A stretch of 64,000 nt of DNA from an uncultured Veillonellaceae bacterium (GTDB lineage: Bacteria; Bacillota; Negativicutes; JARBTT01): the NCBI GenBank assembly GCA_963805085.1, contig CAWDTA010000002.1, positions 1,024,001 through 1,088,000 of the forward strand, given 5' to 3'. The notes below the pieces were generated by a model. That model did not search any database. It was not told the DNA's origin and saw only the letters and a program-made list of their open reading frames with translations. Within the stretch, counting starts at the first letter, position 1; every line of letters begins with the position of its first letter. Shown one piece after another: positions 20,274 to 64,000 of this stretch. A program made the translations under genes and the position numbers.

Positions 20274-20302
20274 TTGACATAATTTGCTAAAAGATATATA
20301 AT
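20274..20302 (+). promoter_or_regulatory. Consensus sigmaA/sigma70 promoter for the riboswitch-agr operon
   Basis: TTGACA (20274-79), 17-nt spacer, TATAAT (20297-302); the riboswitch starts just downstream. Confidence 0.9.
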
Positions 20303-20311
20303 TTAGACAAA

Positions 20312-20398
20312 ATAATACGTTGGCAAACTCATTGAAAAGTGAGGACGCAAAGCTATGGGTCTAGAGGGTTTTTAACCTATGATTGCCAGGTTGCAACT
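20312..20398 (+). ncRNA. Cyclic di-GMP-I (GEMM-I) riboswitch
   Basis: GGCAAA-CTCATT-GAAA-AGTGAG-GACGCAAAGCTATGGGTCTA...TATGATTGCCAGGTTGC: P2 with GAAA tetraloop, the GACGCAAAGC junction and P3; G20 (20322) and C92 (20394) equivalents are the c-di-GMP type. Confidence 0.92.
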
Positions 20399-20400
20399 TG

Positions 20401-20433
20401 AAAAAGTGAGGCTAGATGTCTTGCTTTTTTTTT
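20401..20433 (+). terminator. Riboswitch expression-platform terminator
   Basis: AAAAAGTGAGGC-TAGAT-GTCTTGCTTTTT (G-U-rich stem) plus a T9 run directly 3' of the aptamer. Confidence 0.75.
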
Positions 20434-20596: not shown

Positions 20597-21910
20597 GTGC
20601 CAGAAATTGATTTTAAGGTAGTAATTTTTAATTCTTTTCCTGAAGCGATGGTATTAGCATGGTTAAGCCTGTCGCTTTTAGGGATAAGGCCACGTTTTTA
20701 CCAAATACTATTGATCGGATGTTTACAGACCGTTTTTGTTATGATTCTTTATTTTGTTATTGGGAAATTGATTCCCATCCCTTTTGGTGTTCATACAATA
20801 ATGCAATTGGCTTGTTTGGCTGGAATAATACACGTTGTCACAAGGATTCCTTATAACAGCAGTTGCTTGGCTACTTTGTTCGGAATTAGTATTTATTGCT
20901 GTATTGATTGTTGGGTGACGCCAATATGTGTTTATATTTGGGGACAGTCTCTTGTCGATTTCGCAAATAACTGGTGGATGCGAATGTCTTATTTCACTTT
21001 GCAAATGTTCATTAATATAATGATTATTTTTTTGATTCGCAAGTTTAGTCTTTGGTTACCAGACGGAGCAGACTCTGGGCGTAGCAAAACGTTGCTAGGA
21101 TTGGCCGGGCTGTTGGCTACGCAAACGTTAATAATAGATTTTTTTTGTTGGAAATATTATCTGGCTTATGCGGATGCTTTTAAGGCGCCCATACATTTAT
21201 ATTTTGTTTTAATAAACGCAATCTTACCGTTGATTACGATGGTTATTATCAGGCAATTCATGGGGTTTATTCGTCGGGAAGTAGAAGATAAGACGCAACT
21301 CGATACGCTTAGTCATGTGGAAGGACTGCTGTATACAATGCGAACGCAGCGTCACGATTTTAGCCATGAATTACAGGTGATTTACGGTTTGTTGCAAGTA
21401 GAGGAGTATCAAGAAGCCCTAAATTATTTAAAAAAGAGTGTGACCGAGGTTGCTGCGACTTCAGAATTGGTCAAAACCGATAATCTTGGTGTCACGGCAT
21501 TGCTCTACACGAAGACTGGCTTGGCAGAAGCCCGCAAAATTACTTTGCATATTACCGTGGAAACGAGTTTGAAACAAGCTCCCTTAGAAGCAAGGGATAT
21601 CAATGTGATTCTGGGTAACCTGATTGACAATGCCATGGATGCGGTGGAAAAATTGCCAATACCAGAAAGGCAGGTGTCAGTTACCATTGGGCTGGGAATA
21701 GACGGGTACATATTGGAAGTACAAAACTATGGAGCACCAATTCCACCAGCTATAATTGGCAAAATATTTATGCCCGGTGTTTCGTCGAAAGGACAGGGGC
21801 ACGGCATGGGATTATACAGCATTCAAAAGCTTGTAAGTAAATACAATGGTAAAATCAAGGTGAAAAGCGATAACAATGGTACTTCTTTTCATGTCGTGAT
21901 TCCGGAGTAA
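20597..21910 (+). CDS. agrC: AgrC/VirS-like multi-TM sensor histidine kinase (GHKL)
   Basis: About six N-terminal TMs; H-box RTQRHDFSHELQV; N-box LGNLIDNAMDA; G-box GHGMGLYSI; adjacent to agrB, agrD and a LytTR regulator. Confidence 0.82.
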   Translation: MPEIDFKVVIFNSFPEAMVLAWLSLSLLGIRPRFYQILLIGCLQTVFVMILYFVIGKLIPIPFGVHTIMQLACLAGIIHVVTRIPYNSSCLATLFGISIYCCIDCWVTPICVYIWGQSLVDFANNWWMRMSYFTLQMFINIMIIFLIRKFSLWLPDGADSGRSKTLLGLAGLLATQTLIIDFFCWKYYLAYADAFKAPIHLYFVLINAILPLITMVIIRQFMGFIRREVEDKTQLDTLSHVEGLLYTMRTQRHDFSHELQVIYGLLQVEEYQEALNYLKKSVTEVAATSELVKTDNLGVTALLYTKTGLAEARKITLHITVETSLKQAPLEARDINVILGNLIDNAMDAVEKLPIPERQVSVTIGLGIDGYILEVQNYGAPIPPAIIGKIFMPGVSSKGQGHGMGLYSIQKLVSKYNGKIKVKSDNNGTSFHVVIPE

Positions 21911-21962
21911 TTAGAGATTAACAAGTTACAAGTGTTAATGATTTTGGATGGAGATGAGAAAT

Positions 21963-22604
21963 ATGAGAGATTTAAGAAGTGTTGCCGAAGATACGGCGCA
22001 TTATTTGGGGGCGGAATTGCACCTTGATACTAAAGAAACGGCGGCGATACGGTTCGGACTAGAATCGCTTTTGGACTTCATTATTAATCTTGGGGCTATA
22101 ATTGGTGTTGCCTGGTGGATGGGAATTACGTCGTACGTTTTGGCAGTTTTGGTTCCATCAAGTTTGTTACGACTTGTTTCTGGGGGGGCTCACTGTTCTA
22201 CTTTTTTGCGTTGCTTAGTTCTGAGTTTGGCTATTATGATCGGTTTTGGCCAGTTGGCTGCTAAAATAATGATATCGCAATCCTTACTTTACGCTTTAAT
22301 TGTTTTTTTAGCCGCTAGTGGAGTGTACACCATACATAACTGGGTACCAGCCGATACGCCAGCAAAACCGATTGTTTCAACTAGGAAAAGAGCGATGTAT
22401 AGGAAAATTTCTTATATCTATATGGCTATTTGGACAGTTGCGATGAGCGGGCTAACCTCTTGGGGAGAGTCGGTTTCGGGGGTCGCTTTCGCGAGTATAG
22501 GGGGAGTTGGCTGGCAAATTTTTAGTATTACGCCTGCTGGTTATCACTTCGTTGCTATAATGGAGAAGTTGGTTGATAAAACAATAGTGCTTTTTAAACA
22601 ATAA
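21963..22604 (+). CDS. agrB: AgrB-family autoinducing-peptide maturation protease
   Basis: LRLVSGGAHCSTFLRC (catalytic His/Cys motif) and PADTPAKP motif, multi-TM; alternative start at 21948. Confidence 0.92.
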   Translation: MRDLRSVAEDTAHYLGAELHLDTKETAAIRFGLESLLDFIINLGAIIGVAWWMGITSYVLAVLVPSSLLRLVSGGAHCSTFLRCLVLSLAIMIGFGQLAAKIMISQSLLYALIVFLAASGVYTIHNWVPADTPAKPIVSTRKRAMYRKISYIYMAIWTVAMSGLTSWGESVSGVAFASIGGVGWQIFSITPAGYHFVAIMEKLVDKTIVLFKQ

Positions 22605-22678
22605 AATAACCTTTTTGGACAAACATGCGGTCTTTTTTGACAAGAAATATTGTATGTAGTAAATACCTTGTCTATACT
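22590..22678 (+). promoter_or_regulatory. Putative LytTR-binding triple direct repeat plus promoter of agrD-agrA
   Basis: CTTTTTnnACAA at 22590, 22611 and 22632 (21-bp period); then TTGTAT (22650-55), 17 nt, TATACT (22673-78). Confidence 0.7.
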
Positions 22679-22724: not shown

Positions 22725-22892
22725 TTGCTTAATTTTAAACAGAAGATGTTACATTATGCAGTTAATAAACAGAAGATGTTACATTATGCAGCTAAGGCAA
22801 TGCTTGGGGCATCGATTTTATTTTTCCTACCAGCTTGCATGGTTGGTGCATATCAACCACAAGTGCCAGAACATTTATTAGACCATGAATAA
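22725..22892 (+). CDS. agrD: AgrD-type cyclic autoinducer peptide precursor (55 aa, TTG start)
   Basis: RBS AAGGAGG at 22711-17; MLNFKQKMLHYAVNKQKMLHYAAKAMLGASILFFLPACMVGAYQPQVPEHLLDHE has the clostridial A-C-x4-[YH]QP-x-x-P motif; lies between agrB and the LytTR regulator. Confidence 0.88.
   Translation: MLNFKQKMLHYAVNKQKMLHYAAKAMLGASILFFLPACMVGAYQPQVPEHLLDHE
22736..22795 (+). repeat. In-frame 30-bp tandem duplication inside agrD
   Basis: TAAACAGAAGATGTTACATTATGCAG(T/C)TAA twice, 29/30 identical. Confidence 0.95.
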
Positions 22893-22922: not shown

Positions 22923-23672
22923 ATGCTAAAAGTCATTATCGCCGATGATGATCCTTTAATGCGGCGGATTTTAAAACGCGTGCTTACGGAGATTCCAGGA
23001 GTAGATATCGTTGGTGAAGCGGAAGATGGACGGCAGCTCGTTGATATGGTGGAGAAACTGGAACCAGAAGTTATATTCTTGGATGTTGATATGCCAGAAC
23101 TAAACGGCATTGAGGCATCCAAAGAAATCTTTGATGTTAATCCTAATATTTTTCTCATCTTCGCGACTGGTTTTAATTGTTATGCTCGTGAGGCGTTTGA
23201 AGTTTACGCCTTTGATTATCTGACGAAACCTTTTGATTTAGAACGAATTCGGCAAACAATAAACCGTATTGCAGGATTAAAAGCAGAAAAAGAGCAGGTT
23301 GAGTTACTAAAACGCGAAAAGCCGTTGCCTAGAGAAGAGAATCTCAAGCTTAAGGTTCTATCTAATGATAAAAGCACATTTATCAATGTTTCCGATATTA
23401 TATTTATTACCCGGAATGAGCGTAAAACTATGATTTATGTTACAGGAGAGATGGTAGTTCAAACGTATGAGCCACTGCAAAAGTTTGAAGAGTCCTTAAA
23501 AAAACACCGTTTTTTCCGTTGTCACAAGGGATTTATCATTAATCCAGATATGGTGATGGAACTTTCTCCTTGGGGGAATAAAACCTATTTGGTTAAGTTG
23601 GCGAATACAAAAGAAACAGCGTTGATGACCTTGGAACACGCCAAGGAATTTCAGAATCGATATTGTTTATAA
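22923..23672 (+). CDS. agrA: AgrA/VirR-like LytTR response regulator
   Basis: Receiver IIADDD...FLDVDMP...FATG...DYLTKP; LytTR motif FFRCHKGFIIN. Confidence 0.9.
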   Translation: MLKVIIADDDPLMRRILKRVLTEIPGVDIVGEAEDGRQLVDMVEKLEPEVIFLDVDMPELNGIEASKEIFDVNPNIFLIFATGFNCYAREAFEVYAFDYLTKPFDLERIRQTINRIAGLKAEKEQVELLKREKPLPREENLKLKVLSNDKSTFINVSDIIFITRNERKTMIYVTGEMVVQTYEPLQKFEESLKKHRFFRCHKGFIINPDMVMELSPWGNKTYLVKLANTKETALMTLEHAKEFQNRYCL

Positions 23673-23694
23673 ATAGAATACTAGAAGTTGGTTA

Positions 23695-23757
23695 AGTCTC
23701 CTTGGTAGATATATAGTATGTTACTACATGCTTGTATCTGCTAAGGGGATTTTTTTC
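23695..23757 (+). terminator. Terminator after agrA
   Basis: TCTCCTTGGTAGATA ... TATCTGCTAAGGGGA stem followed by T7. Confidence 0.8.
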
Positions 23758-23775
23758 TTTCTGTAAAGCGAATAG

Positions 23776-23863
23776 TTTCATTCATACAAATCGACCTTTT
23801 AATCAGGAAAGTTGCTTTTTCTGACAATATCTATAGAAATAGAGGCAAAATTTTGGTAAAAAT
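23776..23863 (+). promoter_or_regulatory. Putative LytTR-binding triple repeat plus weak promoter of the loaP/BGC operon
   Basis: TTTCATTCA (23776), TTTTAATCA (23797), TTTCTGACA (23818), 21-bp period; extended -10-like TGgTAAAAA at 23854-62, same distance from the last box as in the agrD promoter. Confidence 0.55.
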
Positions 23864-24056
23864 AAGTAGAAACAATAGGAATAATCACTTAAATGTTGTT
23901 ATGCATGTGTAATCAAGCAATGCAAAAAAATTCTCTTGTATTTTTATAGCGGAGGCGCGTGAAAAGGGTCGAGGGAATGTTATAAATTACATTGAATGAG
24001 GGCCGCTTTTTCGTCTTTTAATGGTTCTAGATGATATTTTTTAGGAGGCAATTGTT

Positions 24057-24557
24057 TTGGAATGGTATGTATTGCGTACGGTTTGTGGCAAAGAGGATGC
24101 AACGTTAACTATTTTACGAAAAATGTTTTCTGAAGTCGAGCTTATTTATCCTAGGAGAAGGATCAGTTGGCGTAAGCAAGGTAGTTATATTGATTTAGTA
24201 AGACCATTGTTTGATGGGTATCTGTTTATTTCATATCCGAAAGAGAAAATTAGAGTCTTTGATCAAATATTACGTATGCGTAATTTAAATATTGCTTGGT
24301 TAGTATATAGCGGTGGCGAATTAATCCCGATTTTAAGTGAAGAAAAGCAATTAATTCAAAAACTTATGGGTAGTGATGGAATCGTTGAAGTAAGTACAGT
24401 TGAGAAACAGAATGAACAATTGCAGGTAGTCAACGGGCCACTCGTAGGATTAGAGCATATAGTTACAAAAGTTTCCCGTAGGAATCGGCGTATTACAGTA
24501 GAAATCCCGATGTTAGACGAAGTAAGGAAGATAGAGTTAGAAGGGAATTTAATATAA
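24057..24557 (+). CDS. loaP: NusG-paralogue transcription antiterminator, LoaP-like
   Basis: NGN motifs WYVLRT..GKE and PLFDGYLFI; KOW motif NGPLVGLE..V.KVSRRNRRITV; RBS AGGAGG with TTG start; first gene of a long PKS/NRPS operon. Confidence 0.85.
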   Translation: MEWYVLRTVCGKEDATLTILRKMFSEVELIYPRRRISWRKQGSYIDLVRPLFDGYLFISYPKEKIRVFDQILRMRNLNIAWLVYSGGELIPILSEEKQLIQKLMGSDGIVEVSTVEKQNEQLQVVNGPLVGLEHIVTKVSRRNRRITVEIPMLDEVRKIELEGNLI

Positions 24558-24564
24558 AAGATGG

Positions 24565-24596
24565 AAAGGGGACGCTTTATGGCGTTTCTTTTTTTT
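24565..24596 (+). terminator. Intra-operon intrinsic terminator between loaP and the TEII gene
   Basis: AAAGGGGACGC-TTTATG-GCGTTTCTTT plus a T8 run. Confidence 0.75.
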
Positions 24597-24624
24597 GTAG
24601 TGAAGAATTAGGAGGAAGAGTAGT

Positions 24625-25425
24625 ATGACAGAAATAAGTATAGTAAATAAGTGGATTCCGTATAGAAGACCAAATAAGTATCCGGGGCTACGCCTTTTTT
24701 GTTTTCCTTATGCAGGAGGTAGTGCCTCCGTCTTTCGCGATTGGATTCATTCTTTTCCAAAGGGAATAGACGTTTGCCCCATACAGTACCCTGGAAGGGA
24801 AAAAAGAATATTTGAGGAGTCATTTACTTCAATGGAATGTTTAACGGAGGAGTTATCTAACGTACTACTGCCGGAATTAGATATTCCATTTGCTTTTTTT
24901 GGACATAGCCTAGGTGCCTTGATTAGTTTTGAACTAGCTCGTCGACTTCAACGAAATGGTGTCAGTCCAGTTCATTTATTTATATCTAGTTACCGTGCGC
25001 CTATAATAGCAAGAAGAAAGGCGCCCATGCATTTATTGCCAGATGCTGAGTTTGTAGAGAGATTGCGTGAATATAATGGTACTCCAGATGCCGTACTGCA
25101 AAACAATGAATTGATGAAGCTGCTATTACCTACGCTCAGAGCAGATTTTGCACTTCATGAAACATATGTATACTCAGCTGGCGTTCCATTAACCTGTCCT
25201 ATTTCTGCTTTTGGAGGACTGGAAGATCTAGAGGTCAAAATTAATGATTTGGAATTATGGAAAGACCAGACCACGGGAAATTTTCGACTGCAGATGTTTC
25301 AAGGAGATCATTTTTATATTCATAACAATGATAAAGGTTTAATTAATTCGATAGTTAAAGATATGACTATTGATTATCAAAGAGTTTTGACAAATCAAGA
25401 ATATAGGAATACTCAAAGTAACTAA
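24625..25425 (+). CDS. Type II (editing) thioesterase, RifR/GrsT-like
   Basis: LFCFPYAGGSAS; FFGHSLGA; LPTLRADF; GDHFY. Confidence 0.95.
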   Translation: MTEISIVNKWIPYRRPNKYPGLRLFCFPYAGGSASVFRDWIHSFPKGIDVCPIQYPGREKRIFEESFTSMECLTEELSNVLLPELDIPFAFFGHSLGALISFELARRLQRNGVSPVHLFISSYRAPIIARRKAPMHLLPDAEFVERLREYNGTPDAVLQNNELMKLLLPTLRADFALHETYVYSAGVPLTCPISAFGGLEDLEVKINDLELWKDQTTGNFRLQMFQGDHFYIHNNDKGLINSIVKDMTIDYQRVLTNQEYRNTQSN

Positions 25426-25532
25426 AATTTTATTGCGTAAACACTGTTAATATGAAGGATATCACAAAGTGATAATAGATGATTTAAAATAGCAACATTA
25501 TCTATTTAATCATCATATAAGGAGATTTCAAT

Positions 25533-27233
25533 ATGTTTAAAGGAAAAAGAATTTCATTATTAATACAAATTGTAGGTATGTATATTTTAATTATTGTTTT
25601 GTTTATCTCAACGGCTGTTTTTTCTGTTTATAGTATAGAAGCTATAGACAATGAGATAGATGCAGTTTCAGATCGTACGGTGCCGCGTATGATACAGATG
25701 AAAGAAGCTCAAAATTTATTTACGCGTGCGTTATTAAATATGAGAGGCTTTATACTGTATGCTGATGGATCAGCTTACGAAACTAATTACCGAAATGATA
25801 TTAGCAAAGCGATAAAAGAAGTGCAAGGGTATAGAGAAACTTCAAATGAAAAAGAAACCCAAGTACAAAGTGAAAAAATACTGCAAGAATTACAAGCATA
25901 TCAAATGGTTGGTGACAAAATAATAAATGCTAAAAAAAATAATGCTCCAAATCTTGGTGAGATAACGTCGCAAGGAAGAATTATAGTAGATAGAATTAAT
26001 GATGAATTTATAAAGTTGGCTGGCATACAAACGCAATACTTTAAGGATCAAACAGCTAATATGAATAACGATATGGATAAAACAATTTCAAGAATGCAAA
26101 TGGCTTCCTTAATTATTTCAATTTTGAGTATACTATTAGCATTTTTCTACACGAAAAGATTATTAAAACGTATTTCAGTATTAAATGACGTTATAGTTCA
26201 GATTGGCAGATTAGATTTAACACCTAGCTTATATAAAGTGTCAATTAATGATGAAATTGGTGATATGCTACAACATCTTGAAGAGGCAAAGAAAGGTGTT
26301 TGTCAAACCGTTGTTTATGTTCAAGAGTCAGCGGCTACGTTAGCCGCTTCTTGCGAAGAGTTGACGGCTACAACAGAAGAATTTTTACGGTCTATTGAAT
26401 CGGTTACGACGAATGTAAATGATATTGCTTCTAGCAGTTGTGAATCAGCAACTAGTATTACTGATATTTCGGCAACGATAGAAGAAGTTTCAGCGAGTGC
26501 AGAAGAAATGAGTGCAGGAACAATGCGAATAGAGAAAAATGCGCAAGACGCAGTAACTGAATCGCAAAAAGGTATGAATTTACTAGAAGAAGTAGTAAAT
26601 CAAAATGGGACGATTTCTAATTCTATGGGAAAAATGGGGAAAGCTGCAAATGCTTTAAATAAATCATCGGAAAAAATCAAAATGATTATTGATGTTATTT
26701 CAAATATTGCAGGTCAGACCAATTTACTTGCATTAAATGCTGCCATTGAGGCGGCACGTGCTGGTGAGGCAGGAAGAGGCTTTGCCGTGGTTGCTGAAGA
26801 GGTCAGAAAGCTTGCTGAACAATCTGAGGATTCAACGAAAGAGATTACTATTATTATTAAAGAAATCAGTGATGAAATAAACAATATGTCAGAGTTCTCA
26901 AGCATTGCATCAATTGAAACAGAAAAAGGCAAGGAATTCGCTTTAAATACCAAACAAGGTTTTGAAAAGATTATTGAACAATTAGAAAAAATTAGTGATA
27001 GCATCAAAGACATGTCTCATGCCTCGGAAGGAATTGCGCAAGGAACACAAGATACTGCTGGAAGTATACAAGCGATTAGCGAAACGGCTTCGTCTACTTC
27101 TAGTAAAACGCAAACGGTAGCAGCTGCTTCAGAGGAGCAGACAGCTAGCATGACAGAAGTGGCTAGGAGCATTGATCAACTAGCTAAATTAGCCATGAAA
27201 ATGAATGAAGAGATAGGCAAATTTAAAATTTAG
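25533..27233 (+). CDS. Methyl-accepting chemotaxis protein with four-helix-bundle-type sensor, embedded in the BGC
   Basis: TM, ~150-aa helical sensor (MRGFILY), TM, HAMP (NDEIGDM), MCP motif [26 protein letters not shown]. Confidence 0.92.
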
Positions 27234-27324
27234 ATATAGACTGATTTAAAGATTGGATGATGCAAGAATTTGAGTTGAAAGAATTGGCAAATAAAAAATC
27301 ATGAGTCATAAATAGAAGTAAAGT

Positions 27325-27350: not shown

Positions 27351-27380
27351 ATGAAAAATATAAACTTTGGAGGTTAATTC

Positions 27381-55000: not shown

Positions 55001-58000
55001 CGGAATTGAAGATAATTTTTTTGAATTGGGTGGACATTCGTTAAAAGCAATAAGCCTTGTAGCCAAAGTACACAAAGAATTTGGGGCAGAAATATCCTTA
55101 CAGCAAATATTTAAAAACCAAACAGTCAAAGAACTAATTAAAACCATTGATGGTGTGACAGAAAATAACTATGCGGCGATTGAATCAATCGTTGAGCAAG
55201 AGTATTATCCGGTATCTTCCGCGCAAAAGAGAATGTTCATTTTGAATCAATTGGAAGCTAATAGTACCGCTTATAATATGTCTGTTGCATTTAAGGTCGA
55301 AGGCATTTTAAACAAGCAGCGCTTTGAAGAGGTGTGGGAAAAATTAATCAAAAGACACGAAGCATTACGGACTGCATTTGAATTAATTAACGAAGAGCCA
55401 GTACAAAGAGTATACAAAGAAGTTTCCTTTAACATTGAATGTTCTTGCGGAAAAAAAGAGGAAATCAAAGATATTTTCCAAAATTTTGTGCGTCCATTTG
55501 ATTTAAGCAAAGCTCCACTATTAAGAGTAGGCTTGATTGAATTGGCTGAAGATAGCCACGTGGTGTTATTTGATATGCACCATATTATCTCTGATGGCGT
55601 ATCTATGGGAATCTTGGCAAAAGAGTTGGCAAGTTTGTATGAAGGAGCGGAATTGCCGGAATTACAAATTCAATACAAAGATTTTTCGGCTTGGCAAAAA
55701 AAATTGCTGACAAGTGAAAACTTTAAACAACAGGAAGCTTATTGGTTACAGACTTTAGGTGGAGAACTTCCGGTACTCAATATGCCAACCGATTATCCAA
55801 GGCCATCGGTCAAAGGGTTTGAGGGAGACTTGCTAAAGTTTAGTCTAGACGAAGAACTGACGAGAAATTTAAATAAGCTTGCGATGGAAACTGGTACGAC
55901 TTTATATATGGTACTGATGGCAGCCTATAATATTTTATTATCAAAATATACGGCGCAGGAGGATATCATCATAGGTACACCAATTACAGGCAGACATCAT
56001 GCGAATTTAGATAATATTATCGGCATGTTTGTTAATACACTGGTGATGCGAAATTTTCCAGAAGGGAACAAAATTTTTCTGGAATTTTTGCGAGAGGTCA
56101 AAGAAAATGCGCTACAGGGCTTTGAACATCAGGACTACCAATTCGAAGAATTGGTGGATAAGTTGGATGTACCAAGAGATTTGAGTAGAAATCCATTGTT
56201 TGATATGATGTTTTCTTTGCAGAATATGGATATTGCAGCGTTAGAATTTAATGGTTTAAAACTATTTCCTTATGAATTTACGAACAAGGCTGCAAAATTT
56301 GATCTAAGCTTAGAGGTAGTGGAAGCAAACAAATGTTTAGAGTTTACACTGCAATACTATACAAAACTATTTAAGAGAGAATCGATTGAACGATTGTGCA
56401 GGCATTTTGTTAACATTCTGAAAAGTATTGTGATTCAGCCGCAAATCAAAATTGCAGACATCGAATTTTTATCAGAAAATGAGAAAAATCAAATACTTTA
56501 TGATTTTAATAATACAGAAGCTGCCTATCCGATAGATCAAACAATACCAAGAATGTTTGAGGCGCAAGTTGAAAAAATACCGAATCATATCGCTGTAACT
56601 TTTGCAGAGCAGCATCTAACTTATGAAGAGCTAAACAACAAAGCAAACCAATTAGCAAGGGTATTAAGAAATAAGGGAGTACGACCAAATAGTATCGTCG
56701 GAATTATGGTAGAGCGTTCACTGGAAATGATGATCGGAATTATGGGAATATTAAAAGCTGGAGGGGCTTATTTGCCCATTGATCCGAAATATCCGCTAGA
56801 CAGAATCTGCTATATGCTGAAGGATAGTGGAGCAAGCATTGTATTAACTCAGGAACATTTGTTGCATATAGCACCGTTTAAAGGAGAAACAATTCAGTTA
56901 GACCATCAAGGGTTATACTCAGGAGATTCTTCTAATTTGATACCTGTAAGCACTCTACGAGGCTTAGCTTATGTGATATACACATCAGGTACGACCGGAC
57001 ATCCTAAAGGCGTTATGATTGAACAGCGCAATGTTATAAATCTGGTTTATGACTTGCGAGATCGAGTATATGGGAAATATGCATCTAGTCTAAATGTAGC
57101 ATTACTATCGCCATATGTTTTTGATGCCTCAATTAAGCAGATTTTTCCGGCTCTTTTATTGGGACATAATTTGTGCATTGTACCAGAAAATATACGATTT
57201 GAACGGGCGGGATTACTTGATTTTTATCGTAAAAACAACATTGACATTTCTGACGGAACACCTGCACATCTTAGCGTATTTAATTCCATTTCCAAGAGTA
57301 ATGAATACTTAGGTGTCAAAGAATTTCTGATAGGCGGAGAAGCCCTCTCTTACTCAGTTGTGCAAGAATTTCGTAATCATTTTAATAAATCAAATATTAA
57401 GATTACAAATGTTTATGGGCCAACAGAGTGCTGTGACATTGCCACGACTCATGAAGTAGATTGTGATGAAAATCATTTAAGTGATATTGCTCTCCTTGGA
57501 AAACCAATTTCCAACGTAAAAATCTATATATTGGGGAAAAATTTCATGATTCTTCCCGTTAATAATATAGGAGAGGTGTATATTTGCGGACAAGGAGTTG
57601 GCAGAGGCTATCTAAACAATCCTGAATTGACAGCAGAAAAGTTTATGGATAATCCTTTCATGCAGGGAGAGAGGATGTATAGAACAGGAGATTTAGCTAG
57701 ATGGCTACCTGATGGAACCATAGAATTCTTTGGTAGAATAGATCACCAAGTGAAAATTCGGGGATTTAGAATCGAAGTAGGCGAGATTGAAGCCGAACTT
57801 TTAAGACATCAGTCTATAAAAGAAACAGTTGTGATTGACAAGGAAGGCATAAACGGAGACAAGTATTTATGTGCCTATTTTGTAGCTAAGCAGGAACTAA
57901 CTATAGCAGAATTGAGAAAATTTCTTTCAAAAAAAATTCCTGATTACATGATTCCGTCAGCTTTTGTACAGCTTACTAAGATGCCATTAACGCCAAATGG

Positions 58001-61000
58001 GAAAATTGATAGAAAAGTATTGCCAGAGCCTGAGGGGCGGATCAATACCGGAACGAAATATGTAGCTCCAAGAACCCAAGAGGAAGAAAAGTTAGTGGAA
58101 ATTTGGCAGACTGTTTTAGGGACGGAGAAGGTTGGTATTGAAGATAATTTCTTTGAATTGGGTGGTCATTCTTTAAAAGCAATTACTCTTGTTGGCAAGA
58201 TACATAAGGAGTTTGGAGCAGAAATATCGCTGCAAGAAGTATTTAAAGCGCAAACAATTAAGGAAATGATCAAAACCATAGAAGATGTTGGGGAAAGTGA
58301 TTATGCGACAATTGAACCAGTAGCTACACAAGAATACTATCCAGTTTCTTCGGCGCAAAAGAGAATGTTTATCTTGAATCAATTTGAATCTGAAAATATA
58401 ACTTATAATATGCCCGCTGTATTTATAGTAGAAGGAACTTTAGATAAAGAACGATTGGAAAATGGATTCAAGAAACTTATTCAGCGGCACGAAACATTAC
58501 GAACCTCCTTTGAAGTTGTTAATAGAGAACCAGTACAAAGGGTACACAAAAAAATTGAATTTACCATCGACAGTATGCAAAGGGGTAAAGAAGATATAAA
58601 GGAAATCATAAAAGCTTTTGTGCGTCCCTTTGATCTAGGCAAAGCAACATTACTTAGAGTGGGGCTAGTCGAACTAAATAAAGATAAACATATTCTGCTA
58701 TTTGATATGCACCATATTATCTCTGATGGTGTATCTATGGGGATTTTAGTCAAAGAACTGATAGGTTTATACCAAGGGCACGAACTGCCGAAACTACGGA
58801 TTCAATATAAAGATTTTTCGGCTTGGCAGAACGACTTGTTTCAAAGCAAAGCGTTAAAGAAACAAGAAGCGCATTGGCTAAAAATCTTTGCAGGAGAAAT
58901 TCCTGTACTAAATATGCCAAGTGATTATCCACGTCCAATCGTTAGAAGTTTTGAGGGAGACCGGTTCAACGTTTCTATAGAAGAAGAATTGACGGAAGCG
59001 TTAAACAAACTTGCTATGCAAACTGGTACGACCTTATATATGGTGCTATTGGCGGCGTATAATGTTTTGCTATCCAAATATACTGGTCAGCAAGATATTA
59101 TTGTAGGATCACCAATTACAGGCAGAGCGCATGATGACTTAGAGAATATGGTGGGTATGTTTGTCAATACATTGGCAATGCGGAACAACCCGGTGGAAAA
59201 CAAAAGTTTCCTAGATTTCTTACAAGAGGTTAAGGATAATGCATTGGATGCCTATGAGTATCAGGACTACCAATTTGAAGAATTGGTGGACAAGTTGAAC
59301 ATAGAAAGAAATTTGAGTAGAAATCCGTTGTTTGATACCATGTTTGTTGTCCAAAATACGAATACAACAACGTTAGAAATTAATAATTTAAGATTTTCAC
59401 CTTGTGAATTTGAGCATAAAGTAGCCAAATTTGATTTAACCGTGGAAGCGATTGAAATAAACAACCGTTTAGAATTAATTTTGGAGTATTATACTAAGCT
59501 GTTTAAGAAAGAAACGATTGAACGGTTCGGAAGGCATTTTGTCAACCTTTTAAAAAGTATTACAATGCAACCGCAATGCAAATTGGGAGATCTTGAATTT
59601 GTATCAGTGGAAGAAAAACGCCAAATTCTCGTTGACTTTAACAATACGAAAAGAGCTTATCCAAAGGATAAAACTATCCAGAAACTCTTTGAGGAACAGG
59701 TGGAAAAGAATCCAGATCATATTGCTGTAATTTTCGAAGAAAAGCGGCTGACTTATCGAGAATTGAACAATAAAGCCAACCAACTAGCAAGAACCTTAAG
59801 GAAGAAGGGCGTAAAAGCTAACAGTATAGTTGGGATTATGGTGGAACGTTCGCCGAAAATGATCATAGGAATCATGGGGATTTTGAAAGCTGGAGGGGCA
59901 TACCTGCCCATTGATCCGGAATATCCAGCAGAAAGAACTAACTACATGTTAGAAGATAGTGAAACAAGAATTTTAGTGACGCAACAAAAACTAATTGAGT
60001 CAATAACCTTTAATGGAGAAATTGTCGACATTGATGATTTTGAATTATACGAAGAAGATACTAGAAACTTAGTAGCAGTAAATACCTCGCAGGATCTAGC
60101 ATATGTGATTTATACCTCAGGGTCGACGGGAAAGCCTAAAGGAGTTTTGACCATGCATTATAATGTAGTTCGGGTTGCCAAAAACACGAATTACATTGAA
60201 ATCACTAGAAATGATGTATTGCTACAGTTATCCAATTACGCTTTTGACGGTTCAGTTTTTGATATCTATGGAGCATTGCTAAACGGAGCGAAACTTGTGC
60301 TGGTTGATAAGGAAAATGTAGTAGATATGAACAGATTGAGTAAGGTAATCGACCAAGAAAAAGTAACAGTTTTCTTTATTACCACGGCCTTGTTTAATAC
60401 GCTGGTGGACGTAAATATTGAATGTCTAAAAAACATAAGAAAAGTGTTGATTGGTGGAGAGCAGAGTTCGGTAAGGCATGTACGCAAGGCTTACGAATAT
60501 ATGGGAAGTGGCAGGATAGTAAACGCTTATGGACCGACAGAAACAACAGTTTTTGCAACCTACTATGAAGTAAATCATATAGAAGAGGGTCAATTGACTA
60601 TACCGATAGGAAAACCGATAGCGAATACTCGTATCTATGTACTAGACAAGGGCGGAAAACTACAGCCTATCGGTGCTCCGGGGGAAGTATATATTTCTGG
60701 TGATGGTTTGGCTAGGGGATATTTAAATAGACCTGAACTAACAGATGAGAAGTTTGTAGAAGATCCATTTGCGTTAGGTGAGCGAATGTATCGGACAGGC
60801 GACCTTGCTAAATGGTTACCGGATGGCAATATAGAATTCTTAGGACGAATTGATCATCAAGTGAAGATAAGAGGATTTCGGATTGAATTGGGTGAAATTG
60901 AAGCCGAGTTGTTAAAACATCCAGTTATAAAAGAAGTATTAGTGCTTGCTAAAAATGATGTAAGTGGCAATAGGTATTTATGTGCATACCTTATAGGTGA

Positions 61001-62120
61001 ACAAGAAATTGTCATTTCGGAGCTCAAAAAGTATTTAGAGCGAACATTACCTCATTATATGGTTCCGTCAGCTTTTGTACAGCTTGAAAAAATGCCGTTA
61101 ACATCAAACGGGAAAATCGATAGAAAGACACTGCCAGAACCGCAAGGAAGGGTGCAGACCAAAATGGAATATGTAGCACCGAAAAATCAAGTGGAAGAAA
61201 AGCTGGCAGAGATTTGGCAGGATATTTTAGGGGTTGAAAAAGTTGGGACTAAAGATAATTTCTTTGAACTTGGCGGTTATTCCCTAAAAGTTATAACCCT
61301 TGTTGCTAGAATATGTGAGGAATTTGGTGTAGAAATACCTTATGACCAAATTTTTAAGAATCCTACGATATCAGAACTTGCAAAATGCACTGAAAAATCG
61401 GATACGGCTAGAAAGGTATACAGCGATTATATAAGGTTTAACGAAAGTAATGGTAATAAACCGAACCTGTTCTTCTTTCCTCCGGCAGTGCCATTGGGGC
61501 TGATCTATAGGCAGCTAGCGGCTGAATTGGAAGAGTATACGTTATATTGCTTTAATTTAGTTGAAACTGAAGCTAAAATCAAAGAATATGTAAAAATGAT
61601 AACTGGCATACAATGGCAAGGTCCATACATTTTGGCTGGGTTTTCCGCAGGTGGAATCTTGACAGTTGCGGTTGCAAGAGAATTAGAACAGCAAGGTTAT
61701 GATGTAGCGGGAATCGTTTTGTTAGATTGCCAATATGTAAAAATACCAGAAGAGAGCATGGAACTTTTGATGGAACGTGTTGATGCCTACATGGTAAATA
61801 TGGATGTATCTAAAAAAGAAAAGAAGAATATCAAAAAATTCATTCAAAATAAGACAATGAATTATTTAACTTATCTTAATGGCATAATTAACGATGAAAA
61901 AATTACAGCCAATATATATCAGATATATTCTCATAAAGAGCAGCAAAACTGTTCCAAGGCTGATGAATGGAGGCAGAAATCCACAGGGACATATTTGGAA
62001 TACAAGGGCTTTGGCACACATGATGCTATGTTAGAAGCTGATTATGTAAAAGAAAATGCTCAGATTGTAAAACAAATAGTGGGTGTCTTGCAACCAGAAA
62101 AATGGGGTGGAAAAATATGA
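52041..62120 (+). CDS. NRPS: [C(DCL)-A(Leu)-T]-[C-A(Glu?)-T]-[C-A(Ile)-T]-TE
   Basis: LSPMQEGML and WSFHHIIMDGWC (DCL type); A codes DAWFLGHVVK, DAKDLGVDIK, DGFFLGAVFK; TE motifs GFSAGG and GTHDAML. Confidence 0.95.
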   Translation: MSNVKKKDNKKIKDIYLLSPMQEGMLYHSLLYSESNAYFEQSFLSIEGSLDVKFLEESLNMLIERYDILRTVFVYENVERPVQVVMKARKGHIHFEDITNFSDLEKKAFIEKFKMDDRQKGFDLRKDLPMRISVVRTGNESYKLVWSFHHIIMDGWCMGIIRKEFLAIYHSLKENRQPNLGPVYPYSDYIKWLTKQSREEAALYWERYLKEYEELVGLPQNRDIVMDGKYELAEVVFQINENTRIGLENIVKKNNVTLSTIVQSAWGILLQRYNNTEDVVFGAVVSGRPHEIKGIENMVGLFINTLPVRIKCGGDESFTELVDKVQQFAVESERYSYCPLAEIQSNTGLKSSLVDHIVVFENYPIEEGLGANEIGFAVGDSEAYEQTNYNFNMIVILGKELTVKFNYNALVYDQIFIKRIQGHFQAVINSIIKNPNILVKDIDILTEKERQELLSFNNTQVEYPKYKRINELFEEQVEKNPDSIAVKFEEKKLTYKVLNNKANQLARLLCKKGVKRDGIVGIMAERSPEMIIGIMAILKAGGAYLPIDPEYPEDRISYMLADSGAEILLTQQHLISQEYSDKEILSLDDPKLYYGDNSNLFIEHNARDLAYVIYTSGSSGKPKGVEIEHTSLVNLVAWHQRVYNITYMDRASQLAGQAFDASVWEIWPYLTAGAQLCIPSNETRASTTGLIQWLKDNLITISFMPTPMAEALLAEEWPGDFRLRALLTGGDKLHRRPSKELPFTLVNHYGPTENTVVTTCASVSSAEPKDILPSIGRPIDNTQIYIVDKNNNLQPVGIAGELCIYGDGLAKGYLNRPELTAEKFVANPFVPGKRMYRSGDLARWLPDGNIEFLGRIDYQVKIRGFRIELGEIEAELINYPSMKEAVVIDKEDTNGQKYLCAFIVAEQELNTKELRAYLSHTLPAYMVPSIFIQLEKLPLTPNGKIDKKGLPEPEGRISIGTEYVAPRNEREEKLAQIWQNVLGVEKVGIEDNFFELGGHSLKAISLVAKVHKEFGAEISLQQIFKNQTVKELIKTIDGVTENNYAAIESIVEQEYYPVSSAQKRMFILNQLEANSTAYNMSVAFKVEGILNKQRFEEVWEKLIKRHEALRTAFELINEEPVQRVYKEVSFNIECSCGKKEEIKDIFQNFVRPFDLSKAPLLRVGLIELAEDSHVVLFDMHHIISDGVSMGILAKELASLYEGAELPELQIQYKDFSAWQKKLLTSENFKQQEAYWLQTLGGELPVLNMPTDYPRPSVKGFEGDLLKFSLDEELTRNLNKLAMETGTTLYMVLMAAYNILLSKYTAQEDIIIGTPITGRHHANLDNIIGMFVNTLVMRNFPEGNKIFLEFLREVKENALQGFEHQDYQFEELVDKLDVPRDLSRNPLFDMMFSLQNMDIAALEFNGLKLFPYEFTNKAAKFDLSLEVVEANKCLEFTLQYYTKLFKRESIERLCRHFVNILKSIVIQPQIKIADIEFLSENEKNQILYDFNNTEAAYPIDQTIPRMFEAQVEKIPNHIAVTFAEQHLTYEELNNKANQLARVLRNKGVRPNSIVGIMVERSLEMMIGIMGILKAGGAYLPIDPKYPLDRICYMLKDSGASIVLTQEHLLHIAPFKGETIQLDHQGLYSGDSSNLIPVSTLRGLAYVIYTSGTTGHPKGVMIEQRNVINLVYDLRDRVYGKYASSLNVALLSPYVFDASIKQIFPALLLGHNLCIVPENIRFERAGLLDFYRKNNIDISDGTPAHLSVFNSISKSNEYLGVKEFLIGGEALSYSVVQEFRNHFNKSNIKITNVYGPTECCDIATTHEVDCDENHLSDIALLGKPISNVKIYILGKNFMILPVNNIGEVYICGQGVGRGYLNNPELTAEKFMDNPFMQGERMYRTGDLARWLPDGTIEFFGRIDHQVKIRGFRIEVGEIEAELLRHQSIKETVVIDKEGINGDKYLCAYFVAKQELTIAELRKFLSKKIPDYMIPSAFVQLTKMPLTPNGKIDRKVLPEPEGRINTGTKYVAPRTQEEEKLVEIWQTVLGTEKVGIEDNFFELGGHSLKAITLVGKIHKEFGAEISLQEVFKAQTIKEMIKTIEDVGESDYATIEPVATQEYYPVSSAQKRMFILNQFESENITYNMPAVFIVEGTLDKERLENGFKKLIQRHETLRTSFEVVNREPVQRVHKKIEFTIDSMQRGKEDIKEIIKAFVRPFDLGKATLLRVGLVELNKDKHILLFDMHHIISDGVSMGILVKELIGLYQGHELPKLRIQYKDFSAWQNDLFQSKALKKQEAHWLKIFAGEIPVLNMPSDYPRPIVRSFEGDRFNVSIEEELTEALNKLAMQTGTTLYMVLLAAYNVLLSKYTGQQDIIVGSPITGRAHDDLENMVGMFVNTLAMRNNPVENKSFLDFLQEVKDNALDAYEYQDYQFEELVDKLNIERNLSRNPLFDTMFVVQNTNTTTLEINNLRFSPCEFEHKVAKFDLTVEAIEINNRLELILEYYTKLFKKETIERFGRHFVNLLKSITMQPQCKLGDLEFVSVEEKRQILVDFNNTKRAYPKDKTIQKLFEEQVEKNPDHIAVIFEEKRLTYRELNNKANQLARTLRKKGVKANSIVGIMVERSPKMIIGIMGILKAGGAYLPIDPEYPAERTNYMLEDSETRILVTQQKLIESITFNGEIVDIDDFELYEEDTRNLVAVNTSQDLAYVIYTSGSTGKPKGVLTMHYNVVRVAKNTNYIEITRNDVLLQLSNYAFDGSVFDIYGALLNGAKLVLVDKENVVDMNRLSKVIDQEKVTVFFITTALFNTLVDVNIECLKNIRKVLIGGEQSSVRHVRKAYEYMGSGRIVNAYGPTETTVFATYYEVNHIEEGQLTIPIGKPIANTRIYVLDKGGKLQPIGAPGEVYISGDGLARGYLNRPELTDEKFVEDPFALGERMYRTGDLAKWLPDGNIEFLGRIDHQVKIRGFRIELGEIEAELLKHPVIKEVLVLAKNDVSGNRYLCAYLIGEQEIVISELKKYLERTLPHYMVPSAFVQLEKMPLTSNGKIDRKTLPEPQGRVQTKMEYVAPKNQVEEKLAEIWQDILGVEKVGTKDNFFELGGYSLKVITLVARICEEFGVEIPYDQIFKNPTISELAKCTEKSDTARKVYSDYIRFNESNGNKPNLFFFPPAVPLGLIYRQLAAELEEYTLYCFNLVETEAKIKEYVKMITGIQWQGPYILAGFSAGGILTVAVARELEQQGYDVAGIVLLDCQYVKIPEESMELLMERVDAYMVNMDVSKKEKKNIKKFIQNKTMNYLTYLNGIINDEKITANIYQIYSHKEQQNCSKADEWRQKSTGTYLEYKGFGTHDAMLEADYVKENAQIVKQIVGVLQPEKWGGKI

Positions 62121-63394
62121 AGCTCGTTCAACTGGCTGGCTTATATTTCTTAGGAACTGAGGCGTTTACTTCATCAAATAGCATGAGGGCAACAGTGGTT
62201 CTTAAGGAAAAAATTAATAATAAAAAATTGGTTCAAAGTTATAGAAAACTAATCTCTGAAAATCGATTACTCCAAACGAAAGTTATTGAATCCCCTGAAA
62301 AGAACAAATTTGAATGGGGACAGTTTTCTTCGGAAGAGCTAGAGCAATTACTCAAATTTGAAGAGTGGAAGCTTAGTAAAAAGTATGATAAAGATACTCT
62401 GTTAAAGGAGTATTACCCGACCAATACACGCCTGCCCTTCAACATATCTGTAGTGGATGAATACACGGTTGTTATTTGTATGAATCATATTATTGCAAAC
62501 GGTAAGTGTTTGGTTTTTTGGATTCAAAAATTGCTTCAATATTATGAGGGGAATCAACCCAAAAGCATACAAGAAAAAACCACAAATATGGATTTTTGGC
62601 ATGGTATATTACGCATGATGAAAAAGCTCATTGCTTTCCTATGGCTGCCAGTTTTTCTTACTGAATTTATCTGCAGAGCTGGCAAGAATGCTGGAAAGGA
62701 CGTTGTAGACTTAAGTTATGGTAAAACTCCTGAGAAAAGTAATAACTATGCCACCAAGTCATATAGTTTTGGCAGGGAGGACACTAAAAAATTATTGCTG
62801 CTATGCAAGGCTAAAAAAATGACGTTAACAGAATATATCTGCGAAAGGGTGGTCAACGGTTTATTTCAGTACGTACCTGATAAAAAACGTGTTGCTATTT
62901 CAATGCCTATGGATATAGGTCTAATTTCGCCTTATTCACCGGAAAATGCCTATGGAAACTTGATAGCAAGTCTTCCGGCACAATTTTTTCGAGATAGAGA
63001 AATAGATAAGCAAGTTAAATCTGTATTTCGTTGGTTTAAAAAGGGCATTCCTTATAGTTTGGCATGCTTAGCAGCTAATGTTTCTATATCTTACGAAAAA
63101 GTTAAAACACAATGGTTAGAGCAGAGTAAAAAACCTATACCAGAAAGGTCCCCGTTAGGGGACTTTTCGCTTACCTATTCCAATTTGGGCATTATATCAT
63201 ATCCTGTGATGGAGAGATTGGTCGATTCGATCTATTTCTCCTTTAAGACACAATCGGTCCTTTTGGTTTCCTCTACTATTTCAGGTAAGTTATGCATGAA
63301 AATAAGTTTATCAAAGGATCTCTATAATACTGAGGAAGTATTCAAGCTATTTGATCAAATACTATCTATAGAATATTTAGATAATTCAAAATAA
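62117..63394 (+). CDS. Stand-alone condensation-like / CoA-dependent acyltransferase-fold protein with variant motif NHIIANG
   Basis: ATGA overlap with the NRPS3 stop; MNHIIANG resembles HxxxDG; YGNLIAS and SNLG motifs are typical of AATase/PapA5-like folds. Confidence 0.6.
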   Translation: MKLVQLAGLYFLGTEAFTSSNSMRATVVLKEKINNKKLVQSYRKLISENRLLQTKVIESPEKNKFEWGQFSSEELEQLLKFEEWKLSKKYDKDTLLKEYYPTNTRLPFNISVVDEYTVVICMNHIIANGKCLVFWIQKLLQYYEGNQPKSIQEKTTNMDFWHGILRMMKKLIAFLWLPVFLTEFICRAGKNAGKDVVDLSYGKTPEKSNNYATKSYSFGREDTKKLLLLCKAKKMTLTEYICERVVNGLFQYVPDKKRVAISMPMDIGLISPYSPENAYGNLIASLPAQFFRDREIDKQVKSVFRWFKKGIPYSLACLAANVSISYEKVKTQWLEQSKKPIPERSPLGDFSLTYSNLGIISYPVMERLVDSIYFSFKTQSVLLVSSTISGKLCMKISLSKDLYNTEEVFKLFDQILSIEYLDNSK

Positions 63395-63416
63395 AAATTA
63401 AGGAGACGATAGTAAT

Positions 63417-64000
63417 ATGTGTAAAATAAACTCGGGATTAATCTACAAAGAGTATCCAATGACTTCGTATCAAAAAGATATCTGGGTAGAGCAGTGTCTA
63501 TACTCGGAAAAACCGATTTATAATCTAGGTGCATTCATAAATATTAATGGGAAAATAAATCAGGATATTTTAAATCAAGCAATTGATACATTAATAAAAA
63601 ATCATGACTCTTTACGAACGAATGTAATTGATAAGAATGGAGAACCTTATCTGAAAATATTAGCAGAAATTGCATATGAAGTTCCGTTTTATGATTTTTC
63701 TAACAAAGAAAATTCTAATGTAATGTGCTTAGATTGGATGAGAAAGGAATTTTTAAAGCCTATTGATTTTGGAGGTATTCTATTTCAATTTGCGTTACTT
63801 AAGGCTGATGATAATACCTACTTTTGGTTTATGAAATATCACCATATCATAATTGATGGCTTTGGGATAGGTATAGTATATAAGCAAGTTATTGAAACTT
63901 ATAACCAATTGATGGTGGGCTCTGCAGACAATGAAAGAATAACGTATTCCTACACAGATTTTATTGCCGATCATCAGAAATACCTTGATTCCCAGACTTT
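63417..64000 (+). CDS. NRPS beginning with a starter-type condensation domain (3'-truncated by window edge)
   Basis: RBS AAGGAG; MCKINSGLIYKEYPMTSYQKDIW...YNLG...HDSLRT...KYHHIIIDGFG; open to the window end; not in the ORF track. Confidence 0.88.
   Translation, partial: MCKINSGLIYKEYPMTSYQKDIWVEQCLYSEKPIYNLGAFININGKINQDILNQAIDTLIKNHDSLRTNVIDKNGEPYLKILAEIAYEVPFYDFSNKENSNVMCLDWMRKEFLKPIDFGGILFQFALLKADDNTYFWFMKYHHIIIDGFGIGIVYKQVIETYNQLMVGSADNERITYSYTDFIADHQKYLDSQT

Follow-up and report, generated by a model that had tools for sequence, protein, structure and literature searches.

A possible serially wired riboswitch, agr and LoaP control region ahead of a Negativicute lipopeptide gene cluster

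In Staphylococcus aureus, the agr genes are arranged as agrBDCA with the promoters P2 and P3, and paired direct repeats of 21-bp period serve autoinduction as well as one effector promoter. Specialised NusG paralogues that serve a single long operon are exemplified by RfaH with its ops element and by UpxY of Bacteroides, which is encoded by the first gene of its operon. Lipopeptide synthetases of the iturin/mycosubtilin type and of the cyanobacterial puwainaphycin type combine a fatty acyl-AMP ligase (FAAL), an acyl carrier protein (ACP) with one polyketide synthase (PKS) module, a nonribosomal peptide synthetase (NRPS) line, and a thioesterase (TE). In culture, most large PKS/NRPS clusters of anaerobes stay silent, and little is known about their regulation. 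Reviews of clostridial secondary metabolism have reportedly mentioned agr genes in the vicinity of PKS/NRPS loci, in which case the control of such clusters by quorum sensing would not be new in itself. Here, we analysed a 64-kb stretch of DNA from an uncultured Veillonellaceae bacterium (contig CAWDTA010000002.1, positions 1,024,001 to 1,088,000; "the window" hereafter means this whole stretch), in which a cyclic di-GMP (c-di-GMP) riboswitch, an agr locus, a gene for a LoaP-like NusG paralogue, and a FAAL-PKS-NRPS gene cluster follow one another. All control elements and cluster genes are co-directional on the plus strand.

Two further described systems bear on this locus. According to the part of the Bacillus velezensis account available to us (PMC12691694), LoaP needs a small leader hairpin of the UNCG type and acts on NusA-dependent terminators, and difficidin and macrolactin production is wholly LoaP-dependent; the regulation of loaP itself is not addressed in that part. 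In Clostridioides difficile, the class I c-di-GMP riboswitches are described as OFF switches in which, as in the window, a class I aptamer precedes an intrinsic terminator in the 5' leader, and a class II riboswitch controls the signal-transduction operon cmrRST; unlike in the window, no agr locus is among the riboswitch targets listed in the available part of that source (PMC11477304). The link in C. difficile runs the opposite way, an agrA mutant lowering the Cd1 flagellar leader region (PMC3754575). In the open-access literature, C. difficile was the only case joining a c-di-GMP riboswitch and an autoinducing peptide (AIP), with different wiring, and we found there neither a description of a c-di-GMP riboswitch ahead of an agr operon nor one of loaP receiving an input from LytTR or quorum sensing. 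The layers are each established on their own, and we read their serial wiring in front of a lipopeptide cluster as a new combination of known parts.

The control region of the window begins with a sigma-A-type promoter (TTGACA-17-TATAAT, 20274–20302) matching the consensus at 12 of 12 positions, the sole perfect site among 44 promoter-like sites between 19000 and 30000. Ten bases 3' of it starts a c-di-GMP-I (GEMM-I) aptamer (20312–20398; RF01051, 72.7 bits, gathering score 35), the sole Rfam match within the window. A terminator hairpin of 12–13 pairs, several of them G-U, with a T-run (20401–20433) was identified by folding as the putative expression platform; it starts 2 nt past the aptamer match without overlapping the aptamer. 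Family models recognise all four of the genes that follow, in the order agrC-agrB-agrD-agrA, and behind them come loaP and a FAAL/PKS/NRPS line of more than 35 kb, from 27381 past the window end. An earlier reading of this DNA from its letters alone (hereafter the original prediction) had listed each of these elements, and each of them was recovered; it had passed over the thioesterase and chemoreceptor genes between loaP and the FAAL gene. Like the agr system of S. aureus, the locus has an AgrB peptidase, an AgrD with a Cys-x4 ring, a polytopic AgrC, an AgrA of the LytTR type, and 21-bp-period repeats. Unlike in S. aureus, agrC comes first and agrA last, the boxes for autoinduction are internal to the operon, in the agrB-agrD spacer, a c-di-GMP riboswitch precedes the operon's first half, and the effector promoter would drive a NusG paralogue and a biosynthetic operon instead of RNAIII.

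The reading that we favour, and regard as fairly probable in its qualitative form, is that of a serially wired riboswitch-agr-LoaP control region of a Negativicute lipopeptide cluster. The strong housekeeping promoter and the riboswitch terminator would set the amount of agrC-agrB message, and c-di-GMP would thereby act on the capacity to process and sense the AIP. The boxed promoter between agrB and agrD would put agrD-agrA under positive feedback dependent on phosphorylated AgrA, and a strong terminator would end the agr unit. A second boxed promoter would give rise to a leader of about 170 nt with a conserved hairpin, followed by loaP as the first gene of this transcript. By analogy with B. 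velezensis, LoaP might load onto the elongation complex via the leader RNA and carry RNA polymerase over two terminators, T1 and T2, into the FAAL-PKS-NRPS genes, with the thioesterase and the chemoreceptor being co-expressed. Because loaP lies on the transcript on which its product would act, this step would be self-reinforcing. A stricter version, in which the region acts as a second-messenger-gated quorum-sensing licence for processive antitermination and LoaP alone admits the polymerase to the operon of more than 55 kb, is tentative, and we consider it rather doubtful.

For comparison, LoaP relatives were sought in 61 genomes (the window's own and 60 relatives), AgrA relatives in one genome per species of GTDB, of which the best 80 loci were kept, the conserved loaP-leader motif in 401 genomes of the class, and the riboswitch-terminator junction among metagenome contigs. 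The closest AgrA loci in the GTDB species set were those of Lucifera butyrica, classed in the Negativicutes, and of Sporomusa. The full chain recurs in two others. The metagenome contig L127, from a near relative with 79–95% protein identity to the window, carries a Pom-like gene, the promoter, the aptamer, agrC, agrB, agrD, agrA, and loaP, as well as the beginning of the thioesterase gene. An 8.9-kb contig (C65) of G110, the genome of a member of another family with 48–83% identity to the window, spans the aptamer, agrCBDA, loaP, thioesterase, and chemoreceptor and extends into the FAAL gene. Judging by these sequences, the serial arrangement is kept across at least two families. In Lucifera, the Pom-like gene, promoter, aptamer, and terminator are followed by two agrC copies, agrB, agrD, and agrA.

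Promoter, aptamer, and terminator can be aligned almost base for base among the window, L127, G110, and Lucifera, and the orthologous aptamers reach 77.5 and 74.5 bits with RF01051. Stem P2 shows compensatory changes (CTCATT/AGTGAG in the window, CCCATC/GGTGGG in Lucifera, CTTATC/GGTGAG in G110), and no P1 covariation was seen among the aptamer orthologues compared. We built a GEMM-I covariance model from 11 aptamers and ran it over 89 sources (1.4 Mb), including the 80 AgrA-relative loci. Strong matches occurred solely in the window, G110, and Lucifera, the last being the sole strong one among the 80 loci, and the riboswitch-agr link is therefore specific to a small clade and not background. 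Three weak GEMM-I-like matches (33–34 bits) were located 3' of agrA-like genes on a Peptococcaceae contig (JJNX02000021.1; L029/L030), which could be a different riboswitch-agr neighbourhood with an arrangement unlike that of the window. Directly 5' of the promoter, the window has a gene of the Pom family (Protochlamydia outer membrane protein; 19252–20178), kept in Lucifera and L127; together with a TolC-like export protein of the cluster, it fits a diderm Firmicute host.

The window's genome holds nine class I c-di-GMP aptamers in total. The other eight (L119–L126) precede three chemoreceptor genes, two genes for GGDEF proteins, genes for an M23 peptidase and an epimerase fusion, and one unclear target. 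In four of these eight, the 3' strand of the aptamer (GCCAGGTTGCA) doubles as the 5' arm of the terminator, which is clearly the classical ON design with ligand binding blocking termination. The agr riboswitch is built otherwise, its terminator being a separate hairpin. Because of the analogy with C. difficile and the absence of the ON design from the agr copy, we lean slightly towards an OFF switch, by which the cluster would be licensed at low c-di-GMP and high cell density. The original prediction had c-di-GMP gate the density sensor, and the conservation of the riboswitch ahead of agrC in L127, G110, and Lucifera speaks for this part of it; such gating is likely real, while the ligand response is what we infer.

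agrC (20597–21910) encodes an AgrC-like polytopic histidine kinase of 437 aa with matches to HATPase_c_5 (53.7 bits), SPOB_a, and HATPase_c, and with 6–7 hydrophobic segments within residues 37–223 according to hydropathy. The staphylococcal AgrC model aligns over residues 48–414 with 47.8 bits, far under its equivalog cut-off of 500, so the protein is a distant member of that family. agrB (21948–22604) encodes a peptidase of 218 aa (PF04647, 109.4 bits, cut-off 23) and is the sole AgrB match in the window's genome. agrD (22725–22892) starts with TTG after AGGAGG and encodes a 55-aa precursor (TIGR04223, 21.9 bits, cut-off 19) with the predicted ring CMVGA. As in this precursor, the four orthologues compared have Cys or Ser, followed by four ring residues that vary and by a tail kept as YQPxVPEHL; their rings are CLTGA in L127, CVSGD in G110, CYTGL in Lucifera, and SFIIL, with Ser for Cys, at the locus L025. 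A diverging ring beside a kept tail is the pattern expected of a working pheromone, and by this pattern the agr system looks functional. A 30-nt tandem duplication with one mismatch within agrD (22736–22795), repeating ten N-terminal leader residues (KQKMLHYAxx), is missing from the orthologues of L127, G110, and Lucifera. agrA (22923–23672) encodes a LytTR response regulator of 249 aa (Response_reg and LytTR), and its orthologues are 61–93% identical. The strong terminator after agrA (23697–23756), read from the sequence, closes the agr unit, and a hairpin with a T-run is found at the same site in all five loci that possess agrA.

Two putative AgrA boxes stand in the agrB-agrD spacer (22612–22643) as direct repeats with a 21-nt period, one (TTTTTGGACAA) at 22612 and the other (TTTTTTGACAA) at 22633, and a matching pair, the distal CCTTTTAATCAG and the proximal TTTTTCTGACAA, in the loaP promoter (23795–23827), as the original prediction had it. 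GACAA-N16-GACAA is found twice in the window, against 0.19 expected from shuffles. The loaP promoter pair is conserved, its proximal box being invariant at six of six loci, with a degenerate distal copy 21 nt upstream. The spacer between agrB and agrD holds three box copies with a 21-nt period in Lucifera and on the agr contig C171 of the genome G051, and one good and one degenerate box in G110. At L025, another gene 3' of agrA is preceded by three copies spaced at 21-nt steps. Two Sporomusa genomes have agrA directly ahead of a trans-AT PKS cluster without loaP, and a homologous whole promoter block precedes that cluster; an AgrC-like kinase gene lies 5' of agrA at the Sporomusa locus L022, and none was found by tblastn at L023. 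Direct repeats of 21-bp period, the binding geometry of LytTR regulators, adjoin agrA orthologues at nine loci that belong to different genera. On the plus strand between 20400 and 23830, TTTTnGACAA occurs at 20428, 22612, 22633, and 23817. A single copy of TTTTTTTGACAA at 20427, over the T-run of the riboswitch, is absent from the Lucifera counterpart and was taken as chance.

The spacer from agrA to loaP measures 385 nt. loaP (24057–24557) encodes a NusG paralogue of 166 aa that scores 119.2 bits with the LoaP model NF033641 and far lower with other families (UpxY 40.5, RfaH 34.3, NusG 29.2 bits), LoaP being the best family by about 79 bits. As with RfaH and UpxY, a specialised NusG paralogue would serve a single long operon, here as in the UpxY case from its first gene, but the subfamily is a different one. 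The closest solved chain is 8f5g_A (E 1.8e-14). loaP is found directly ahead of the thioesterase, chemoreceptor, FAAL, PKS, and NRPS genes, and likewise in five other genomes (6/6 loci). Six further LoaP homologues of 51–57% identity (G039, G060, G006) all adjoin PKS genes, which agrees with the known association of the LoaP family.

The leaders of loaP from six loci were aligned together with their promoters and folded as a consensus with RNAalifold. They share, 3' of the boxes, AAAAATTCTCTTG, then GCGGAGGCGCGTG, then GGGAGAACGTTAT, a block folding as a 47-nt stem-loop with the apex GCG-GAGG-CGC (23931–23977), which is a candidate LoaP recruitment hairpin. A second leader hairpin (23997–24020), which in the window is weak and has no clean T-run, might with low confidence be a weak terminator or a pause site. 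Over both hairpins, 26 pairs are predicted, five with compensatory change. The GCGGAGGCGCGTG block may resemble the ops sequence. Within the window's own genome, the leader motif is found a single time. Across the 401 class genomes, the pattern GCGGAGGCGCRTRAA gave 16 matches in 15 genomes, six of them just 5' of a loaP homologue; the other ten were unrelated and mostly coding, in line with the seven matches of a reversed-pattern control, so only the six loaP-adjacent matches are meaningful. No Rfam family for the loaP leader was found in a search of 23600–29200 with E up to 1, which returned two chance-level small-RNA matches only.

Terminator T2 (27325–27351), a hairpin with a T-run directly before the FAAL gene, is kept in all four loci with a readable chemoreceptor-FAAL junction. 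Its arms are AAACGCC/GGCGTTT in the window and G110, AACGTC/GACGTT in G172, a compensatory change, and GCGCC/GGCGT in G108. In the window, 18 nt separate the T-run from the ribosome-binding site of the FAAL gene. Because the conserved T2 leaves no room for a promoter before the FAAL gene, the megasynthase genes would be reachable only by read-through, and T2 is, as far as sequence can tell, the strongest argument for an obligatory read-through. Terminator T1 (24568–24596), read from the sequence after loaP, leaves 28 nt ahead of the thioesterase gene. Both terminators had been announced as near-identical; both are present, and the likeness was overstated, since only the 3' arm and the T-run are common (GGCGTTTCTTTTTT vs GGCGTTTTCTTTTTT). 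Of the whole chain, the stretch that leads from the AgrA boxes over loaP and T2 into the megasynthases has the best support, and we hold it to be quite probable.

Like LoaP and the dfn and mln clusters of B. velezensis, as far as the available part of the account describes them (PMC12691694), the window combines a NusG paralogue beside very long PKS operons containing intrinsic terminators with a leader hairpin followed by a terminator. It differs from what that part describes in having loaP as the first gene of the operon on which LoaP would act, an apex of GAGG instead of UNCG in the hairpin, LytTR boxes in the promoter, and, as the cluster, a FAAL-PKS-NRPS lipopeptide line in a diderm anaerobe.

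Several observations weigh against the serial reading, beginning with its first two layers. It had been assumed that the agr locus would not routinely be found without the cluster, and this did not hold. Lucifera has neither loaP nor the cluster in the 10 kb following its agr genes. G051 has two agrA copies: its contig C171 (L130, 4762–7797) carries a complete agrCBDA away from the cluster, with no riboswitch in the 4.7 kb upstream of agr, and its contig C285 (L002, 26–170) has a frameshifted agrD remnant without the Cys, then agrA, loaP, thioesterase, and chemoreceptor. In G172 and G034, agrA, preceded by unrelated genes, stands with loaP, thioesterase, and cluster without adjoining agrCBD. 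In G108 (99% complete), loaP, thioesterase, chemoreceptor, FAAL, and PKS have no agrA alongside, and a search with the window's AgrB found no AgrB in the genome; in G001, of the same genus (84% complete, 280 contigs), the window queries matched neither a LoaP nor an AgrB. Because agr without the cluster and the cluster without agr both occur, the four layers are not an obligate unit. The chain in L127 and G110 bears out the four-layer arrangement of the original prediction, which is a mosaic of three separable modules: riboswitch and agr, agrA and the boxed promoter, and loaP and the cluster. In addition, folds and orthologue comparison revealed no conserved alternative pairing between aptamer and terminator of the agr riboswitch, so the coupling and its sign are unproven. 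One antiterminator candidate, a 6-bp pairing in the window between the 5' arms of P2 and of the terminator, was dropped, as the P2 covariation in Lucifera and G110 is unmirrored in the terminator. Finally, agrD-agrA has its own boxed promoter and is not strictly behind the riboswitch, which would therefore act mainly on agrC and agrB.

The same observations invite the explanation that AgrA, or a related LytTR regulator, and LoaP alone control the cluster, the riboswitch tuning a general agr system whose response regulator the cluster happens to use as well, and c-di-GMP having little or no effect on the product. The position of the boxed agrD-agrA promoter 3' of the riboswitch-controlled genes, the agrA-loaP-cluster units of G172, G034, and the G051 contig C285 without agrCBD or riboswitch, the riboswitch-agr unit of Lucifera without a cluster, and the aptamer-terminator coupling sought in vain would all suit it. 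On the other hand, the window's AgrB is the only one found in the genome, and without agrC and agrB there would be neither kinase input nor AIP for AgrA; moreover, G110, of another family, has kept the whole chain. We consider this explanation unlikely, though it survives better than the others.

Orphan agrA genes have further neighbours of their own. A conserved non-coding block (CACCCATGTGGGTGATGGTGAAAGTTAAGCTG...) lies 5' of agrA in G172 and G034 (L024, 1–2095, the same contig as the G172 locus; L014, 15146–15700, minus strand). L024 has two tandem copies of an unannotated open reading frame on the opposite strand 5' of agrA, and a divergent LuxR-type regulator gene is located near the orphan agrA of G034.

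The serial reading is also strained at the LoaP step. The window's LoaP falls 6 bits short of the NF033641 cut-off of 125, T1 is present in only two of the six loci (window and G110), and the loop of the leader hairpin, GAGG, departs from the UNCG type of Bacillus; inspection by eye, which was not systematic, noticed no UNCG-loop hairpin in 23673–24056, 24558–24624, and 27234–27380. The cluster might then be a mobile island that came to lie beside agr, in which T1 and T2 are ordinary ends of loaP and the chemoreceptor gene, the megasynthase genes are expressed from an unseen promoter of their own or by leaky read-through, and the NusG paralogue has another role. In G108, the cluster (L117, G108:C109, 2158–4259) adjoins a transfer-messenger RNA (tmRNA) gene, a truncated MFS gene, and a zinc-ribbon fragment of a recombinase; such surroundings are expected of an island and suggest that the loaP-cluster module moves as a genomic island. 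However, loaP stands directly ahead of the cluster at every one of the six loci, T2 is conserved with covariation, 18 nt before the ribosome-binding site in the window, the leader hairpin covaries and travels with loaP, and all six further LoaP homologues are next to PKS genes. Mere juxtaposition without processive antitermination is hence quite improbable in our estimate. The read-through by LoaP that the original prediction proposed keeps its support from T2, and no hairpin of the Bacillus type was noticed for it by eye.

The boxes leave the least room for another explanation. AgrA binding to the TTTTnGACAA repeats, and with it the proposed start of cluster transcription by phosphorylated AgrA, would follow from the shared boxes, which stand in the spacer of agr and, at six loci, in the promoter of loaP. 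Two points count against it: the box differs from the AgrA site of S. aureus, and G108 retains its boxes although agrA is not adjacent, which for that genome calls for a regulator from another locus. That the repeats are sites of another regulator, or UP-like T-tracts with a -35-like TCGACA, AgrA having its targets elsewhere, would accord with G108, with the near-consensus -35 (TCGACA) inside the proximal box, and with the modest statistics within the window (five matches to TTTTNNGACAA on both strands against 1.74 expected, a count reached by 3 of 100 shuffles), but it is very improbable given the LytTR-like 21-bp geometry and the repeats beside agrA orthologues in nine loci, including the classical autoregulatory position within agr.

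If the stricter version of the serial reading is correct, this would be the first described riboswitch ahead of agr and the first signal input for a loaP gene, and one control region would tie together lifestyle state, cell density, chemotaxis, and the production of a surfactant or antibiotic. A riboswitch before agr would form a direct RNA-level bridge from a nucleotide second messenger to peptide quorum sensing. The locus would also offer a testable case of regulation acting on a NusG paralogue itself. The wiring suggests how silent clusters of this kind could be activated, with three handles: the AIP with its predicted ring CMVGA, the c-di-GMP level, and the dosage of LoaP.

The genes between loaP and T2 encode a stand-alone (type II) thioesterase (24625–25425; PF00975, 176.8 bits), next after loaP in all six loci, and a methyl-accepting chemotaxis protein of 566 aa (25533–27233; MCPsignal, 160 bits), in which, by hydropathy, two transmembrane segments flank a periplasmic domain of about 160 aa without a Pfam match. 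The chemoreceptor gene is present in five of the six cluster loci, missing in G034, and its position between the loaP-thioesterase pair and the FAAL gene may link chemotaxis with the product.

The assembly line starts with the FAAL gene (27381–29174; AMP-binding), for which the NCBIfam FAAL subfamily models score 365–451 bits, under their curated cut-offs. An open frame of 6289 aa (29017–47886), probably with a true start later than 29017, encodes ACP-KS-AT-KR-ACP (ketosynthase, KS; acyltransferase, AT; ketoreductase, KR), four modules of condensation, adenylation, and thiolation domains (C-A-T), and a terminal C or epimerization (E) domain; the domain order was obtained with Pfam on ten pieces of 650 aa. 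It is followed by an NRPS with a partial C, A-T, and then a C or E domain (47940–51998) and by an NRPS with three C-A-T modules and a final TE (52041–62120). Up to 62120, the line therefore reads ACP-KS-AT-KR-ACP, then eight C-A-T modules and TE, and with FAAL, carrier, KS-AT-KR, C-A-T modules, and TE it has the make-up of a FAAL-PKS-NRPS lipopeptide synthetase. Unlike in the FAAL lipopeptide systems described at the outset, the PKS module includes a KR but lacks an aminotransferase, so that a beta-hydroxy acyl start is predicted, at least eight amino-acid modules precede the first TE and a 2966-aa NRPS comes after it, and the export genes are of the MacB/HlyD/TolC type.

Between the NRPS with the final TE and this 2966-aa NRPS lies a gene for a 430-aa protein (62102–63394), whose likeness to condensation domains is weak (PF00668, E 8e-5, short of the cut-off) and for which no match was found at 1e-5. 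The further NRPS starts at 63417 and runs past the window end at 64000, measuring 2966 aa in the genome. Past the window, it is followed by genes for an Sfp-type phosphopantetheinyl transferase and for a MacB-like ABC exporter, its HlyD-type adaptor, and an outer-membrane protein of the TolC-like kind. The lipopeptide gene cluster exceeds 55 kb, and its product would be a lipopeptide by its domain content. Further on (G000:C2:1087001-1127000, L128/L129) lie genes for an ABC-2 transporter, a short-chain dehydrogenase, trans-acting acyltransferases, and a 4331-aa megasynthase, the last two probably belonging to a second, trans-AT PKS cluster on the same strand.

In a screen of sequencing runs, every run contained at most 0.10 of the sampled words, and the contigs recovered from four runs (at least 90% likeness) come from relatives. 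One peat metatranscriptome yielded contigs that, in a relative, cover parts of agrC, agrA, the loaP leader and 5' end, the chemoreceptor gene, and FAAL; they give no ends, strand, or level and may include DNA carry-over, and they were not used for statements on expression or habitat. At the other end of the window, the first 19000 positions hold open reading frames of about 670 aa at 1021–3051, 3264–5288, and 9162–11180.

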